From Enterobacteria phage P4, in sequence record NC_001609.1: a DNA stretch of 11,624 nucleotides; one strand, written 5' to 3'. This document shows positions 2,607 through 11,460 of the stretch, piece after piece. Under the pieces are notes generated by a model. It was not told the origin of the DNA. It saw only the letters and a program-made list of their open reading frames with translations, and did not search any database. Made by a program: the position numbers and the translations under genes. Within the stretch, counting starts at the first letter, position 1, and each line of letters starts with the position of its first letter.

Positions 2607-3926
2607 TTACTTAACACTCATTTTAAAAATCAACCAATAACTATTTTTATTTAAGTATTTCTTTGTATTTTGAATAATCATAAGGCTAATATATTTATTA
2701 CGGTTCATATCCAAATAATCAGCCCACCACTGCATCATTAAACGCCGCTCATCCAAATGCTCGGAGGTATGGATATATGCCGCACGTACATTATTACGCT
2801 CTGAGTGGCTCAGTTGCCTCTCTATCGCGTCATCACTCCATAACCCCGACTCCCCCAACGCACCACGCGCCATAGTCCTAAACCCATGCCCACACACCTC
2901 GGTTTTAGTATCATAGCCCATCGCACGCAATGCGCTGTTTACCGTGTTTTCACTCATAACCTTAGTTGCGTCATGATCCCCCGGAAAAAGCAGCTCTTTA
3001 TCACCACTAATCTGCTTTAACTGGTTTAATAAAATCATCGCCTGTCGACTAAGCGGAACGATATGTTCCTCTTTCATCTTCATGCCTCGGTACGAATAAC
3101 GCACACCTTTAATTTCTTCTCGCTTTGCAGGTATACGCCAAAGAGATTTATCGAAGTCGAATTCATCCCAACGTGCGAAACGTAATTCACTGGAACGCAC
3201 AAAAGTTAGCAAGGAAAGCTTGACCGCAATCCGTGTCATTACACGGCCACGATATGCAGCAAGACGTGCAAGAAACTCAGGGAATCGGCTAGAAGGTAAA
3301 GCAGGGTAATGTCGCGCTTTGGTTGTCGATAGCGCACCAGCCATATCGCTGGCTGGATTTGAGTCGATGTAATCGTTCTGTACGGCATAACGCATAATGG
3401 CTGTGACGCGCTGTTGCAGGCGCTGAGCGACATCGTGTTTGCCACTGGCATCAACTTTTTTAATCGGGGCTAACAGGTGGCTGGTTTTAAGCTGCCGAAT
3501 GTCGGACGAACCGATATGAGGGAATATATAAAGCTCAAGATAGCGAAGAACGCGCGATCGATGGTCTTCACTCCAGCGCTTGTTACTGGCATGCCATTCT
3601 CGGGCGATAGCTTCAAAAGTATATGCCCCCGAATTCTCGGCCCGAGCTTCTTTTTGTACGACTTTTGGGTCTATGCCCTGTACTAAAAGCTTTTTAGCTT
3701 CATCGCGTTTTGCTCTTGCCTGAGCAAGCGTCACAGTAGGCCAAACACCAAACGCAAGACGATCCTCTTTTTTGTCAGAGGGACGTCTGTATTTCATGCG
3801 CCAGTATTTGGAACCTTTGGCCGAAACCTCAAGATACAAACCACCACCATCGGCCATTTTGTAGGTTTTGTCTTTTGGCTTTGCGGTCTCGACCTGTCTG
3901 GCGTTGAGCTTCATTTGGGGGCACAT
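2607..3926 (-). CDS. int: P4-type tyrosine integrase (site-specific recombinase, phage integrase family)
   Basis: 439-aa ORF. N-terminus MKLNARQVETAKPKDKTYKMADGGGLYLEV is the typical P4-integrase arm-binding region; catalytic signature HGFRT...RAAYIHT near the C-terminus. First ATG at 3926, second at 3914. The C-terminal tail runs into AT-rich sequence. Confidence 0.9.
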   Translation of the reverse strand: MCPQMKLNARQVETAKPKDKTYKMADGGGLYLEVSAKGSKYWRMKYRRPSDKKEDRLAFGVWPTVTLAQARAKRDEAKKLLVQGIDPKVVQKEARAENSGAYTFEAIAREWHASNKRWSEDHRSRVLRYLELYIFPHIGSSDIRQLKTSHLLAPIKKVDASGKHDVAQRLQQRVTAIMRYAVQNDYIDSNPASDMAGALSTTKARHYPALPSSRFPEFLARLAAYRGRVMTRIAVKLSLLTFVRSSELRFARWDEFDFDKSLWRIPAKREEIKGVRYSYRGMKMKEEHIVPLSRQAMILLNQLKQISGDKELLFPGDHDATKVMSENTVNSALRAMGYDTKTEVCGHGFRTMARGALGESGLWSDDAIERQLSHSERNNVRAAYIHTSEHLDERRLMMQWWADYLDMNRNKYISLMIIQNTKKYLNKNSYWLIFKMSVK

Positions 3927-4290: not shown

Positions 4291-4590
4291 AAAAAATTTT
4301 TTTTCGAAAGAACTGTTCACACTGTTCACCTTTCTGTTTTCTCCTTTTATTTCAGAGTGATAGGTGGTGAATAATGGGTGAAGGGTGAACATTCGATTCT
4401 TCACCTCCGGCATTCTGCCGATGTGACTCATACCGGTGATTAATCCTCCGCACTGAAATCACTCAGGAAGAAAAAAGTTTTTTTTGATTTGATTGTTCAC
4501 ACTGTTCACCTTTCGTTTTTCTCTTTTAATTTCAGTGTGATAACGGGTGAATATACGGTGAAGGGTGAACAGTGGATTGTTCACCTTCGG
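4291..4590. repeat. crr (cis replication region): two 120-bp direct repeats carrying alpha-binding type I iterons
   Basis: Copies at 4291-4410 and 4471-4590 are near-identical, with an exact 180-bp period (ACTGTTCACC at 4321 and 4501) and a 60-bp unrelated spacer. Each copy holds several TGTTCACC / GGTGAAYA octamers in both orientations. Confidence 0.75.
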
Positions 4591-4603: not shown

Positions 4604-4628
4604 AAAAAAAGACCGGCAGATGCCGGTC
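4604..4628 (-). terminator. Rho-independent terminator downstream of alpha
   Basis: Hairpin GACCGGCAGATGCCGGTC at 4611-4628 followed on the minus strand by a 7-U run (complement of A7 at 4604-4610), a few nt past the alpha stop (4636-4638). Confidence 0.65.
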
Positions 4629-4635
4629 AGGTGGG

Positions 4636-6969
4636 TCAGGCTGTTGTAGGGTCGTCACATTTTGGCAGCCAGTCGCCGTAGCTTTCCTCTTTCAGCGTCA
4701 GGTTGGTCTGTATCCCCTGTTTGGTATGGCGTTTCTCGTAATTCAGTCCGTATTCCTTCAGCATCACCGGCAGCCCCAGCCCGAACATTTTCAGACTGAG
4801 TACATTCCGGTAGCCGTTTGCCTCCATGTAGGCCAGATAGGCGTGATAGAGGTATTTACGGTAATTGCGCGGGATGATACTGGCGTTCCCCATATACATG
4901 CCGCTGGTCTGCGGCAGGGTTTCCAGATAGCCGATAAAATCAAACGTCGGGTCGGCATCCCGTTTGATGTTCAGTGCCTCGTCTGAGTTCTGCTGGGACT
5001 GAAGCAGTGACCGGGCGAGCATCGGGTCGCTGAACTTCTGCATCAGGTGACGCACGATGACCGCCAGCTCGCGGGTGATTTTGTCCTTAAGCTGCGGGTC
5101 GCGCTCCTGCGGGGCTATCTGTTCCGGGAAGTGAATAATCACCCGTCGGCGTGACACGCCGCCGCTGCGGTCGGTGAAGCGCATCGGGTTATTGTTCACG
5201 GCCAGAATCACCGCCGGGATGTGCGTGGAGTACGCATCCCGGTATTTCGGGTCAACGGACACCGCATCGCCGCCGGTGATGGCCTTGAGTCCGGCACCGT
5301 CGCCGCTCCATTTTTCCTGGTCCGGCAGGCGTATCAGTGAGAAGCCAGTTAACGCGGCACGTTCACGCGGGGATTCCAGCGTCTCGATGGTGGCCGACGT
5401 GGCGTTATCCTCCCCGGCCAGCAGGGTGGCTATTTCGGCCATGATACTTTTGCCGCTGCCGCCGGGACCGGTCACCTCCAGAAAGAGCTGCCAGTCGTAG
5501 CGGTTTGCCAGCACCATAAACAGTGCAGCCAGAATCACGTCGCGTTTTTCCGCACGGCCACCGGCGGCACGGTCAAGCCAGCGCCAGAAGGCGGGGGCGT
5601 GGGTTTCCAGCGTTTCACCGTCCACCGGCGGGGTGAAATCCACATCGCACAGGGTGCGCATCCAGTGTGACGGACTGTGCGGGTGGAACGTGCCGTTCTG
5701 CGTGTCGAGCACGCCGTTACGAAAGCCAATCAGGCGGCGGGAGGGGGCTTCCTGCTGCGGAATAATCAGCTTCAGGGTATCCACCACGGAGGCCACCTTC
5801 CCGGAGGAGAACGGCGCACGCAGACGCTGAAACAGCCCGGCCACATCCCGGGCAAAGTCCTGTGGCGGCAGCACCTTCCAGACACCATTTTCATAGCGGG
5901 ACAGAAGCTGGCCGTTGGCATCGACCGCGAGCGCCTCGCCGTAATGCTCATAGATACGCATGGCCTTTTCGCTGGTACTCATGGCGGAAAACTCCGCTTC
6001 GCTCATGGTGTCGAACGGGCTTTCAGCCGGTGGCCGGATGGCATCGTAAATGGCCTTACGGGTGGCCTCCCCGCCGTACTGCGTGAAGGCATCATTCCAG
6101 TCACCGAAGACCGGCGGCAGGGCAACAACACCTTCACACGCATCTGCGGCTGCGGCGGCTTTTTTCTGGCCGTCACCACTGAGGTCACGGTCAGCGGCAA
6201 GGACAATCTGACAGGCGGGGTGCTTCTGCCGGGCAAGGCTGGCCAGAGAAAGGAGGTTCACGGAAGAAAGCGCCACCATCACCGTTTCACCGGTCAGGTG
6301 ATGTACGGTAAGTGCGGTCGCGTATCCCTCCGCTATCCACAGACGTTTTCCGGCCTGATTCTGTCCTTCAAGGGTGTGACAGGTGCCCCTGACCTGTCCG
6401 CCTTTCAGGGTGCGCTTACGGCCGTCAGCACTGATTAACTGAAGGTTAACCAGTTCGCCGCTGTCGTCATACAGTGGCACCACAAGGTCACCGGCGCGCC
6501 AGCTCACGCCACCGGCTCTGTGTGTGCCGGTCAGCATCCGGCATTCCCGGCCGGGAAAGCCCTTGCGGGTCAGGTAGGCGTTACCGGTTCCGGTACGGGT
6601 TTTCGCCATCAGGGTTTGTGCCAGTGCGGCGGCGTTCTTCCGGGCAGCGTCTGTTTCATCAACGGCGGCGGTCGTCACTGCCGGGTCAGCCGGTGGCAGG
6701 CTGCCGGTCACGGCAGCCACCTTTGCGGCCGCGTCGGACGGGGAAACACCAAAAACCTTTTCAACCAGTTTCAGGCCGTCACCGGCACCACACTGATTGC
6801 AGTACCAGGTGCCGCGCCCCTCCCTGTCATCAAAACGGAAGCGGTCACTCCCGCCACAGACCGGACAGGGCTGATGACGGTTCTTCAGCACCTGAATCCC
6901 CAGCGCCGGGAGAATACGCGGCCAGTGGCCGAGCGCATGGCTGACGGTGGCGGTTACGTTCATTTTCAT
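4636..6969 (-). CDS. alpha: Alpha protein: bifunctional DNA primase / helicase with C-terminal iteron-binding domain (P4 replication protein)
   Basis: 777-aa ORF. N-terminal zinc-ribbon CPVCGG...(x)...YCNQCG, primase region, then Walker A GPGGSGKS (D5-like helicase). AAGGAG SD 8 nt upstream of the ATG at 6969. Length matches recalled P4 alpha. Confidence 0.92.
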   Translation of the reverse strand: MKMNVTATVSHALGHWPRILPALGIQVLKNRHQPCPVCGGSDRFRFDDREGRGTWYCNQCGAGDGLKLVEKVFGVSPSDAAAKVAAVTGSLPPADPAVTTAAVDETDAARKNAAALAQTLMAKTRTGTGNAYLTRKGFPGRECRMLTGTHRAGGVSWRAGDLVVPLYDDSGELVNLQLISADGRKRTLKGGQVRGTCHTLEGQNQAGKRLWIAEGYATALTVHHLTGETVMVALSSVNLLSLASLARQKHPACQIVLAADRDLSGDGQKKAAAAADACEGVVALPPVFGDWNDAFTQYGGEATRKAIYDAIRPPAESPFDTMSEAEFSAMSTSEKAMRIYEHYGEALAVDANGQLLSRYENGVWKVLPPQDFARDVAGLFQRLRAPFSSGKVASVVDTLKLIIPQQEAPSRRLIGFRNGVLDTQNGTFHPHSPSHWMRTLCDVDFTPPVDGETLETHAPAFWRWLDRAAGGRAEKRDVILAALFMVLANRYDWQLFLEVTGPGGSGKSIMAEIATLLAGEDNATSATIETLESPRERAALTGFSLIRLPDQEKWSGDGAGLKAITGGDAVSVDPKYRDAYSTHIPAVILAVNNNPMRFTDRSGGVSRRRVIIHFPEQIAPQERDPQLKDKITRELAVIVRHLMQKFSDPMLARSLLQSQQNSDEALNIKRDADPTFDFIGYLETLPQTSGMYMGNASIIPRNYRKYLYHAYLAYMEANGYRNVLSLKMFGLGLPVMLKEYGLNYEKRHTKQGIQTNLTLKEESYGDWLPKCDDPTTA

Positions 6970-8419: not shown

Positions 8420-8505
8420 GATGGCGATAGCCCAGACGGGGGTGAGAATACCGGCTTCACAGGATACCGGCCAGCCCGGAGGCTGCCCCGCCTGAGCTAC
8501 CATTG
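8420..8505 (-). ncRNA. cI: Candidate cI immunity RNA region (approximate)
   Basis: Untranslated leader between the predicted PLE and kil. Contains a segment (plus-strand GGGGGTGAGAATACC, 8437-8451) complementary to a 10-mer direct repeat GTTCTCACGC found upstream (8660-8669) and downstream (8408-8417), matching the seqA/seqB/seqC logic of P4 immunity. Boundaries are approximate and from memory. Confidence 0.3.
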
Positions 8506-8689
8506 ACTCTGCGGCATAATGAGCGGACGCGGGCAGGATGCACGGAATGCCATCTGCACGACTGACCACACACCACACCATAATCTGGCGCTCTGTGGCA
8601 TTGATTGCGACACAAAAAAAGACGCGTGGCGCGTCATATGTCGCCTGTGAATTGCTCGGGTTCTCACGCCCGGCTGCCGATTTTGCGGC

Positions 8690-8729
8690 AGGCGAAAAAC
8701 TATATCCGCAAATGCCGGAAAAAGGCAAG
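8690..8729 (-). promoter_or_regulatory. Candidate early leftward promoter PLE (sigma70-like)
   Basis: On the minus strand, TTGCCT (-35, plus 8729-8724), about 18-nt spacer, TATAGT (-10, plus 8704-8699); predicted start near 8690. Lies just downstream of the vis stop. Confidence 0.3.
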
Positions 8730-8763
8730 CCAGAAAAAGGGAGTTTTTGCAGAGCGGGCATCA

Positions 8764-9030
8764 TCATGCGTCGTACCCCCGTTTGCGTCCGGCAATGCGT
8801 CCGGCCATCCATGCGGTGACTTCAGAGTGCAGCCAGGCCACATTTTTACCGCCAAGACTCACCTGCGGCGGAAATTCCCCCTTACGGATGAGTTCGTAGA
8901 TGGTCGAGCGTGACAGGCCGCACAGGTGCATCACTTCCGGCACACGTAAAAAACGCTCCTGCGTGATGTCCGGCAGCGGCATCAGTGGCGTCACTGGGGC
9001 GGGAGACGGGGAAGAAAAAACAGCTTGCAT
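8764..9030 (-). CDS. vis: Vis, AlpA/Xis-like helix-turn-helix regulator and excision factor (orf88)
   Basis: 88-aa ORF with ATG at 9030 and GAGG SD 7 nt upstream. Contains the AlpA-family HTH ...[30 protein letters not shown].... First gene downstream of the late leftward promoter. Confidence 0.8.
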
Positions 9031-9132
9031 CGGGCTACCTCGTTAATGTCCATACAGCACCGGATAAGTCCGTCCGGCTTCGGGTAGCGCTTTATTTTGT
9101 GAATATTTTCAGCAGACGCAACAGGGGGGATT

Positions 9133-9150
9133 TGTTCAGGCTGTCTTACA
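9133..9150 (-). promoter_or_regulatory. TGT-N12-ACA dyad: Delta/Ogr-type activator site of the late leftward promoter PLL
   Basis: TGTTCAGGCTGTCTTACA at 9133-9150, the P2/P4 late-promoter activator dyad, about 100 bp upstream of the vis start in the leftward direction. Confidence 0.5.
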
Positions 9151-9179
9151 ATGGCTGTGTGTTTTTTGTTCATCTCCAC

Positions 9180-9209
9180 TTAAAGTCATTTAAAGCCACT
9201 TAAAGCAAT
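9180..9209. promoter_or_regulatory. Three tandem cox-box-like repeats (TTAAAGNNAN) at exact 10-bp spacing
   Basis: TTAAAGTCAT / TTAAAGCCAC / TTAAAGCAAT at 9180-9189, 9190-9199 and 9200-9209, upstream of the PLL activator dyad. Resembles binding sites for helper P2 Cox (and possibly P4 Vis). Confidence 0.45.
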
Positions 9210-9308
9210 TTGTAATTTTTATAGTGAAATACAAATCGTTTCTTCTTATTCATTCCCGGCGAATTAATAAAAACAAACAGTAGTAAACAGCACAAAAAGC
9301 CCATCAAC

Positions 9309-9414
9309 GGGTGAACAGTGGTGAACAGACGGTGAACAGTCATTACTGCGATTGTTCACCCTTTAACTTACTGTATTACTTATCTTTTTTATTAAGGTGA
9401 ACAGAGGTGAACAG
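9309..9414. other. ori: origin of replication with six alpha-binding type I iterons and an AT-rich spacer
   Basis: GGTGAACA at 9310-9317, 9320-9327, 9331-9338, 9396-9403 and 9406-9413, plus inverted TGTTCACC at 9354-9361. AT-rich stretch 9362-9395. Same octamer as in crr. Confidence 0.65.
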
Positions 9415-9492
9415 TAAAATATAAAAAAACAAACAGTAAGCCGGTTTTTCCTGCGACCTTTTCCTGGCTTGCCGGTCTGAGGATGAGTCTCC

Positions 9493-9510
9493 TGTGTCAG
9501 GGCTGGCACA
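9493..9510 (+). promoter_or_regulatory. TGT-N12-ACA dyad: Delta/Ogr-type activator site of the late rightward promoter Psid
   Basis: TGTGTCAGGGCTGGCACA at 9493-9510, about 75-90 bp upstream of the sid ATG, consistent with an activator site centred near -55. Confidence 0.55.
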
Positions 9511-9582
9511 TCTGCAATGCGTCGTGTTGTTGTCCGGTGTACGTCACAATTTTCTTAACCTGAAGTGACGAGGAGCCGGAAA

Positions 9583-10317
9583 ATGTCTGACCACACTATC
9601 CCTGAATATCTGCAACCCGCACTGGCACAACTGGAAAAGGCCAGAGCCGCCCATCTTGAGAACGCCCGCCTGATGGATGAGACCGTCACGGCCATTGAAC
9701 GGGCAGAGCAGGAAAAAAATGCGCTGGCGCAGGCCGACGGAAACGACGCTGACGACTGGCGCACGGCCTTTCGTGCAGCCGGTGGTGTCCTGAGCGACGA
9801 GCTGAAACAGCGCCACATTGAGCGCGTGGCACGCCGGGAGCTGGTACAGGAATATGACAATCTGGCCGTGGTGCTGAATTTCGAACGTGAACGCCTGAAA
9901 GGGGCGTGTGACAGCACGGCCACCGCCTACCGGAAGGCACATCATCACCTTCTGAGTCTGTATGCAGAGCATGAGCTGGAACACGCCCTGAATGAAACCT
10001 GTGAGGCGCTTGTCCGGGCAATGCATCTGAGCATTCTGGTACAGGAAAATCCGCTCGCCAACACCACCGGCCATCAGGGCTACGTCGCACCGGAAAAGGC
10101 TGTCATGCAGCAGGTGAAATCATCGCTGGAACAGAAAATTAAACAGATGCAAATCAGCCTCACCGGCGAGCCGGTTCTCCGGCTGACCGGACTGTCAGCG
10201 GCAACACTCCCGCACATGGATTATGAGGTGGCAGGCACACCGGCACAGCGCAAGGTGTGGCAGGACAAAATAGACCAGCAGGGAGCAGAGCTTAAGGCCA
10301 GAGGGCTGCTGTCATGA
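9583..10317 (+). CDS. sid: Sid, external scaffold / capsid size determination protein
   Basis: ORF track starts at GTG 9565, but the ATG at 9583 is preceded by AGGAG (9571-9575) and gives 244 aa (MSDHTIPEYL...), matching recalled Sid length. Helical, Ala/Glu/Leu-rich sequence. Confidence 0.85.
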   Translation: MSDHTIPEYLQPALAQLEKARAAHLENARLMDETVTAIERAEQEKNALAQADGNDADDWRTAFRAAGGVLSDELKQRHIERVARRELVQEYDNLAVVLNFERERLKGACDSTATAYRKAHHHLLSLYAEHELEHALNETCEALVRAMHLSILVQENPLANTTGHQGYVAPEKAVMQQVKSSLEQKIKQMQISLTGEPVLRLTGLSAATLPHMDYEVAGTPAQRKVWQDKIDQQGAELKARGLLS

Positions 10318-10814
10318 TTTACTGTCCGTCGTGTGGACATGTTGCTCACACCCGTCGCGCACATTTCATGGACGATGGCACCAAGATAATGATTGCACAG
10401 TGCCGGAATATTTATTGCTCTGCGACATTTGAAGCGAGTGAAAGCTTTTTCTCTGACAGTAAAGATTCAGGAATGGAATACATTTCAGGCAAACAGAGAT
10501 ACCGCGATTCACTGACGTCAGCCTCCTGCGGTATGAAACGCCCGAAAAGAATGCTTGTTACCGGATATTGTTGTCGGAGATGTAAAGGCCTTGCACTGTC
10601 AAGAACATCGCGGCGTCTGTCTCAGGAAGTCACCGAGCGTTTTTATGTGTGCACGGATCCGGGCTGTGGTCTGGTGTTTAAAACGCTTCAGACCATCAAC
10701 CGCTTCATTGTCCGCCCGGTCACGCCGGACGAACTGGCAGAACGCCTGCATGAAAAACAGGAACTGCCGCCAGTACGGTTAAAAACACAATCATATTCGC
10801 TGCGTCTGGAATGA
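10314..10814 (+). CDS. delta: Delta, late-gene transcriptional activator (tandem Ogr-like zinc fingers)
   Basis: 166-aa ORF; ATG overlaps the sid stop (ATGA). Two C-x2-C...C-x4-C zinc-finger units: CPSCGH...CRNIYC and CRRCKG...CTDPGC. Confidence 0.9.
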   Translation: MIYCPSCGHVAHTRRAHFMDDGTKIMIAQCRNIYCSATFEASESFFSDSKDSGMEYISGKQRYRDSLTSASCGMKRPKRMLVTGYCCRRCKGLALSRTSRRLSQEVTERFYVCTDPGCGLVFKTLQTINRFIVRPVTPDELAERLHEKQELPPVRLKTQSYSLRLE

Positions 10815-10887: not shown

Positions 10888-11460
10888 ATGGAAAGCACAG
10901 CCTTACAGCAGGCCTTTGACACCTGTCAGAATAACAAAGCAGCATGGCTGCAACGCAAAAATGAGCTGGCAGCGGCCGAACAGGAATATCTGCGGCTTCT
11001 GTCAGGAGAAGGCAGAAACGTCAGTCGCCTGGACGAATTACGCAATATTATCGAAGTCAGAAAATGGCAGGTGAATCAGGCCGCCGGTCGTTATATTCGT
11101 TCGCATGAAGCCGTTCAGCACATCAGCATCCGCGACCGGCTGAATGATTTTATGCAGCAGCACGGCACAGCACTGGCGGCCGCACTGGCACCGGAGCTGA
11201 TGGGCTACAGTGAGCTGACGGCCATTGCCCGAAACTGTGCCATACAGCGTGCCACAGATGCCCTGCGTGAAGCCCTTCTGTCCTGGCTTGCGAAGGGTGA
11301 AAAAATTAATTATTCCGCACAGGATAGCGACATTTTAACGACCATCGGATTCAGGCCTGACGTGGCTTCGGTGGATGACAGCCGTGAAAAATTCACCCCT
11401 GCGCAGAACATGATTTTTTCGCGTAAAAGTGCGCAACTGGCATCACGTCAGTCAGTGTAA
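10888..11460 (+). CDS. psu: Psu, polarity suppression protein (Rho antagonist / capsid decoration)
   Basis: 190-aa ORF, last gene of the sid-delta-psu operon. Size and position match recalled P4 psu. Confidence 0.88.
   Translation: MESTALQQAFDTCQNNKAAWLQRKNELAAAEQEYLRLLSGEGRNVSRLDELRNIIEVRKWQVNQAAGRYIRSHEAVQHISIRDRLNDFMQQHGTALAAALAPELMGYSELTAIARNCAIQRATDALREALLSWLAKGEKINYSAQDSDILTTIGFRPDVASVDDSREKFTPAQNMIFSRKSAQLASRQSV

Follow-up and report, generated by a model that had tools for sequence, protein, structure and literature searches.

The late promoters and the replication origin of satellite phage P4 are classics, studied since the 1980s. The late promoters of P2, among the closest counterparts of those of P4, carry the dyad TGT-N12-ACA and depend on Ogr (PMC3931495); both Ogr and its homologue Delta activate the late genes of P4 as well as those of P2 (PMC7552001, PMC8628076). 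For P2, a phage that encodes ogr, the genome record (AF063097) annotates four Ogr-dependent late promoters, giving both the activator site and the transcript start of each. Two of them, the divergent PP and PO, have one common site at 3057-3087, of the form TGT-N12-cCA and centred at 3071.5; the start of one is at 3016 and that of the other at 3127, each of them 55.5 bp from the site centre. For PF and PV the corresponding distance is about 57 bp, the PF site having the form TGT-N12-cCA, and the PV site, the form TGT-N11-ACA. The -10 elements of the P2 late promoters are of the GAAAAT/GAAACT type.

Other parts of the P4 control region have been described as well. The replication regions ori and crr are named as known parts of P4 (PMC9942202). 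The P2 protein Cox binds upstream of the P4 promoter PLL, the consensus of its boxes being TTAAA(G/C)NC(A/C), and Cox-responsive promoters are characterized by at least six such boxes, spaced by 10-11 bp and situated upstream of the promoter (PMC3936717). The text of the P2 record AF063097 also states that Cox activates PLL of P4.

The window, i.e. the whole stretch of DNA analyzed here (11,624 bp), comprises the genome of satellite phage P4 in full. It is tiled by the records X02534, X05623, M27748, and X05947 at 99.5-100% identity, and the region of the dyads and the origin matches X02534, "Bacteriophage P4 essential region", at 99.9% identity (megablast). The length of the window agrees with the published size of the P4 genome. 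The known PLL/ori/Psid locus of P4 is the same object, with the sequence, gene order, dyads and iterons all in agreement, and this control region is already known P4 biology. It is very probable that, in this P4 genome, the dyads at 9133-9150 (TGTTCAGGCTGTCTTACA) and 9493-9510 (TGTGTCAGGGCTGGCACA) are the upstream activator sites of PLL and Psid, respectively, the divergent pair of late promoters. Our analysis concerns the elements seen in the sequence, how they are spaced and how well they are conserved; the binding of the activators, the transcript starts and the dependence on Ogr or Delta come from the literature. The features of the locus and the genes identified by Pfam and by record annotations are listed in Table 1.

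Table 1. Features of the P4 window relevant to the late promoters and the origin (positions are those of the window; an empty cell means that no value applies or is given)
Feature	Position	Strand	Basis and remarks
crr, second cis replication region	4313-4585		same iterons as in ori; X05623 annotation and iteron search
alpha, primase-helicase recognising the iterons	4636-6969	-	Pfam Zn_Ribbon_Prim, Toprim, D5_N, Pox_D5; X05623 annotation
C4 antisense (P4 CI immunity) RNA	8420-8507	-	Rfam
isrK Hfq-binding RNA	8615-8692	-	Rfam
PLE, sigma-70-type early promoter	8699-8728	-	TTGCCT-18-TATAGT
vis (orf88)	8764-9030	-	AlpA-family HTH; Pfam PF05930, E=1.7e-20; 88-aa frame in X02534; first gene after PLL
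PLL -10-like hexamer CAAAAT	9094-9099	-	33 nt downstream of the dyad; composite motif search
PLL activator (Ogr/Delta) dyad, putative	9133-9150, centre 9141.5	-	exact TGT-N12-ACA
P2 Cox-box array, 10-bp period	9176-9211	+	upstream of PLL; direct repeat family D3
ori core, six alpha iterons GGTGAACAG	9310-9415		three direct, one inverted, two direct; repeat family D1
Conserved block TTTTCCTGCGACCTTTTCCTGGCTTGCCGG	9440-9480		two copies of TTTTCCTG, spaced by 13 nt; located after the last iteron and before the Psid dyad; repeat D7
Psid activator (Ogr/Delta) dyad, putative	9493-9510, centre 9501.5	+	exact TGT-N12-ACA
Second Psid dyad	9531-9548	+	exact TGT-N12-ACA; overlaps the -10 CACAAT; 38 bp downstream of the 9493 dyad
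Psid -10-like hexamer CACAAT	9545-9550	+	34 nt downstream of the dyad; composite motif search
sid, capsid size determination	9583-10317	+	X02534 annotation; homologues found
delta, late-gene activator of P4 itself	10314-10814	+	two PF04606 Ogr_Delta zinc-finger stretches, E=6.5e-22; X02534 annotation
psu, end of the Psid operon	10888-11460	+	Pfam PF07455, E=1.3e-88
int			also among the genes identified (Pfam / record annotations)

The 1984 record X02534 has no annotation of PLL or Psid. It labels positions 9030-9441, spanning the whole origin, as the 5' untranslated region of orf88, and places a "consensus -10" at 9495-9501, inside the Psid dyad; these labels predate the mapping of the late promoters and do not fit it. 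In the Rfam scan, the C4/CI RNA and isrK were the sole matches, with nothing found in 9031-9582. The beginning of the isrK match, at 8692, coincides with the position expected for the start of the PLE transcript, which places this start near 8692, approximately 395 bp downstream of the PLL start proposed below.

The preliminary description of the locus, made from the sequence alone, had reported two TGT-N12-ACA dyads in opposite placement, one for the leftward PLL, driving vis, and the other for the rightward Psid, driving sid, delta and psu. Both dyads are indeed exact at the positions given above, the -10-like hexamers lie on opposite strands, and the genes are as named. A scan of positions 8600-9700 for sigma-70-type -35/-10 pairs yielded PLE as the sole match, and none at PLL or Psid, which fits activator-dependent promoters without a -35 element. 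The distance between the dyad centre and the -10 element is 42.5-43.5 nt in P4 and 42-44.5 nt in P2. Based on the P2 geometry, transcription from PLL is expected to start at approximately 9085-9088 and to proceed leftward with a leader of about 57 nt to vis, and the Psid transcript would start at approximately 9557, with a leader of 26 nt to sid.

The late promoters of P2 thus resemble those of P4 in having the activator site approximately 55-58 bp upstream of the start (annotated in P2, predicted in P4), a weak -10 element of the form G/CA-N-A-A/C-T, and no -35 element. Still, several differences are seen. PP and PO of P2 are divergent, as are PLL and Psid, but one central site serves both of them, with 111 bp between the starts, whereas P4 has two separate activator sites, one on either side of the origin and 360 bp from each other. 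Moreover, none of the annotated activator sites of P2 (3057-3087, 10239-10266, 17555-17583) is an exact TGT-N12-ACA, while all three dyads of the P4 late promoters are perfect. The extra dyad over the -10 element of Psid also distinguishes this promoter from the late promoters of P2.

The relatives of the locus were collected from Sid homologues and Vis, yielding 151 divergent vis/sid loci with 136 distinct spacers. Close relatives of P4 account for 113 of these spacers; the remaining 23 come from distant elements, in which Sid is 57-67% identical (Klebsiella, Raoultella, Citrobacter, Scandinavium, metagenomes). Of 5426 complete E. coli genomes, 1005 contain the same spacer, in every case in the chromosome and without annotation. 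Nearly all relatives, even those with approximately 60% identity in Sid, retain the order vis-PLL-ori-Psid-sid as well as a spacer of about 530-575 bp. The P4-like satellites of Enterobacterales have the vis-ori-sid layout, the iteron pattern, the Psid dyad and the hexamer spacing in common with P4, but differ in the dyad of PLL (N11 or absent), in the second dyad of Psid (TGT-N12-AGA) and in the upstream arrays (TGGCAA/TTTGCCA type).

An exact Psid dyad occupies the expected position in all 23 distant spacers and in all but two of the 113 close ones (111), the dyads of these two being shifted in offset. Its 7-nt arms, TGTG[CT]CA and TG[CG]CACA, are conserved, while the four central nucleotides vary freely, a pattern characteristic of sites for dimeric proteins. 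The distance from the start of the dyad to the start of CA[CG]AAT is 52 nt both in P4 and in all 23 distant spacers; in the distant relatives, CAGAAT replaces CACAAT at identical spacing. The second dyad of Psid, centred approximately 18 bp upstream of the proposed start, has its exact form in the P4 lineage alone. In the distant relatives it takes the form TGT-N12-AGA at the same offset of +38, since ACA is a part of the -10 element (CACAAT in P4, CAGAAT in the distant relatives). Delta reportedly leaves footprints at the -55 sites, and a second one at -18 of Psid.

The origin lies between the two dyads, in agreement with the preliminary description: the six iterons sit in AT-rich DNA (9175-9450, 20-44% GC) within an interval of about 340 bp. 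The iteron of the alpha protein is found in the forms TGTTCACC and GGTGAACA. With at most one mismatch allowed, GGTGAACAG occurs 13 times in the window (2.5 expected), and all occurrences but one belong to the ori or crr clusters. The features of an alpha-dependent origin are present, namely, the iteron cluster, the second, distant iteron region, and the primase-helicase gene, and all relatives compared have kept the arrangement of the iterons. A compact intergenic control region contains the origin and, next to it, the late promoters.

The dyads might be a part of the replication machinery or be functionally coupled to it, which we consider very unlikely. Such coupling would agree with the conserved gene order and spacer length, with the spacing between the last iteron and the Psid dyad, fixed at 83-88 bp, and with the block at 9440-9480, kept in both close and distant relatives. 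Moreover, two sequences at PLL are iteron-like. The left arm of the PLL dyad contains TTTGTTCA (9131-9138), which resembles the iteron complement TGTTCACC and has a second copy 34 bp away (9165-9172), and GTGAATA in the -10 region (9099-9105) resembles GTGAATAG, an iteron variant of the distant relatives. However, both PLL and Psid fire away from the origin, so that no late transcript crosses it, and the dyads are outside the iteron cluster, by 160 bp at PLL and 78 bp at Psid. The distance between the dyads tolerates indels, ranging from 353 to 369 bp in the close relatives, and strict helical phasing between them was rejected on the same grounds. Finally, 13 of the 23 distant relatives have the full set of iterons but no PLL dyad. 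For the replication of P4, ori, crr and alpha are reported to suffice, and the host RNA polymerase is not known to be needed. The claim of the preliminary description that transcriptional activation and origin firing are interleaved holds with regard to position, but is unsupported as functional coupling, given the outward direction of the promoters and the distant origins lacking the PLL dyad. There is only a slight chance that divergent transcription from PLL and Psid could add negative supercoiling aiding alpha at the AT-rich origin, or that alpha touching the iteron-like sequences of PLL could tie late transcription to replication.

The PLL dyad shows a different pattern of conservation. 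Its arms, TTTGTTC and CTTACAAT, are invariant in 111 of the 113 distinct close relatives, with variation only at the central positions 9138 and 9142-9144. Among the 23 distant spacers, the exact N12 form is retained in one, TGT-N11-ACA is seen in nine, and neither in 13, seven of which have an altogether different promoter region. The N11 form of these nine is a near-perfect 17-bp palindrome, TGTAGTGG-C-CCACCACA, shifted by 1-2 nt. The Psid dyad is conserved family-wide, and the PLL dyad only within the close P4 lineage.

Distant relatives with the N11 palindrome or with no dyad at PLL, all with a canonical dyad at Psid, could indicate that the palindrome at 9133-9150 is mainly an operator of some other protein (Vis or a Cox-type protein of the helper), and not a site of Ogr or Delta; the existence of a further known input to PLL, Cox, would also be in line with this. 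We hold this to be highly improbable, since the exact N12 form is present in P4 and in the 111 close relatives at a Psid-like spacing to CA-N-AAT, and the Cox boxes form an array distinct from the dyad, 30-60 bp further upstream. Besides, the Ogr-dependent promoter PV of P2 is itself TGT-N11-ACA, so that the palindrome of the N11 form could still be a site of the Ogr type.

In addition to the putative Ogr/Delta site, PLL is preceded by a Cox-box array. Three strong boxes, TTAAAGTCA, TTAAAGCCA, and TTAAAGCAA, start at 9180, 9190, and 9200, respectively (0-1 mismatch to the consensus), and weaker ones at 9169 and 9219 (two mismatches each). The Cox-regulated sites of P2 (the Pe-Pc region and attP) are similar to PLL in having tandem TTAAA(G/C)NC(A/C) boxes spaced by 10-11 bp; in P4, this input is separate from the dyads and confined to PLL. 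The presence of the array beside the dyad suggests that PLL has at least two helper-derived inputs.

In the close relatives of P4 (loci L019-L166), at least three discrete alternative cassettes are observed upstream of the PLL dyad (positions 9171-9215 of the window): one is a TTAAAG Cox-box array, as in P4, and two are unrelated arrays of CTGGAAGG-type repeats. The flanks of the alternative cassettes are 95-99% identical, and this variation looks like swapping of a helper-sensing module. The distant elements have 10-bp-periodic arrays of TGGCAA/TGGCCA/TTTGCCA, in 3-5 copies, at the position of the Cox boxes (L018:2081-2122, L011:2091-2130, L013:2090-2139, L009:2062-2111). At this position the architecture of the array is kept in the distant elements, and the recognised sequence is changed.

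The region downstream of the PLL dyad, comprising the vis leader and the PLL core (9031-9125), is nearly invariant even in relatives with Vis approximately 70% and Sid approximately 60% identical, and is better conserved than the coding DNA on its flanks. An RNA structure in the conserved leader was considered and rejected, as the predicted fold is no better than that of shuffled sequences (z=0.76). This makes a protein site, perhaps an operator of Vis, a likelier explanation of the conservation than an RNA structure. Vis is said to feed back on the late promoters of P4.

The bare dyad is a loose motif. TGT-N12-ACA occurs five times in the window, at 1628, 4642, 9133, 9493, and 9531, compared to 2.45 expected, and five or more matches were obtained in 19 of 200 shuffles, so the count is not significant. 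Three of these matches are additional to those in the preliminary description, which had overlooked the one at Psid. The other two, considered as promoter sites and rejected, are probably due to chance. The match at 4642-4659 lies in the final codons of alpha, with no hexamer at the right spacing; it adjoins the hairpin of the alpha terminator (4607-4630) and is 57 bp from crr. The match at 1628-1645 lies at the end of an ORF (651-1718) with a convergent gene ahead, and CAGTAT is found 34 nt downstream of it.

The composite motif, consisting of the dyad and CA-N-AAT 33-35 nt further on, occurs exactly twice in the window, on opposite strands, at PLL and Psid. In 2000 dinucleotide shuffles its mean number was 0.0225, and no shuffle contained two, although this statistic is somewhat generous, as the CA-N-AAT form was selected post hoc, after the sites had been seen. 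The placement of the dyads, unlike the bare motif count, is far from chance. That the PLL and Psid dyads are chance matches to a loose six-base motif with no regulatory role, as the bare count and the two matches inside genes lacking a promoter context might suggest, is effectively refuted by conservation, judging from the constant arms and variable centres in more than 100 distinct relatives and the retention of the Psid dyad at 57-67% identity in Sid, while the composite motif confined to the two divergent positions and a geometry equal to that of the annotated P2 sites also speak against it.

With the dyads as activator sites of PLL and Psid, the following scheme can be proposed. As the -10 element of both promoters, CA-N-AAT, is weak and a -35 element is lacking, RNA polymerase would need help there. 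Late in a mixed infection, or upon arrival of the helper, either the Ogr of the helper or the Delta of P4 would bind the dyads, and the zinc-finger activator, bound to a dyad centred approximately 55 bp upstream of the start, would recruit RNA polymerase; Delta resembles two fused Ogr units. PLL would then be read leftward into vis and on through the left operon, so that PLE, which is under immunity control, is bypassed, and Psid would be read rightward into sid, delta and psu, with possible positive feedback via delta. The Cox-box array next to PLL may provide this promoter with its second helper-derived input. According to the preliminary description, Ogr and Delta switch on both arms at once. 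Dyads do precede both arms, but this picture is too simple in view of the Cox boxes at PLL and the second dyad at Psid; neither the dyad at 9531-9548, nor the Cox-box array (9180-9208), nor the extra inputs of PLL had been mentioned there.

As a discovery, these observations are of little weight, the region being known; they are useful as a positive control, since a reading of the sequence alone recovered the regulatory elements at exact coordinates. For the family, the activator site of Psid and its spacing are essentially invariant, which may aid the study and engineering of P4-like satellites. Plasticity is seen on the PLL side, where distant relatives have lost or re-spaced the dyad and the adjoining, apparently helper-sensing, array is swapped as discrete cassettes.
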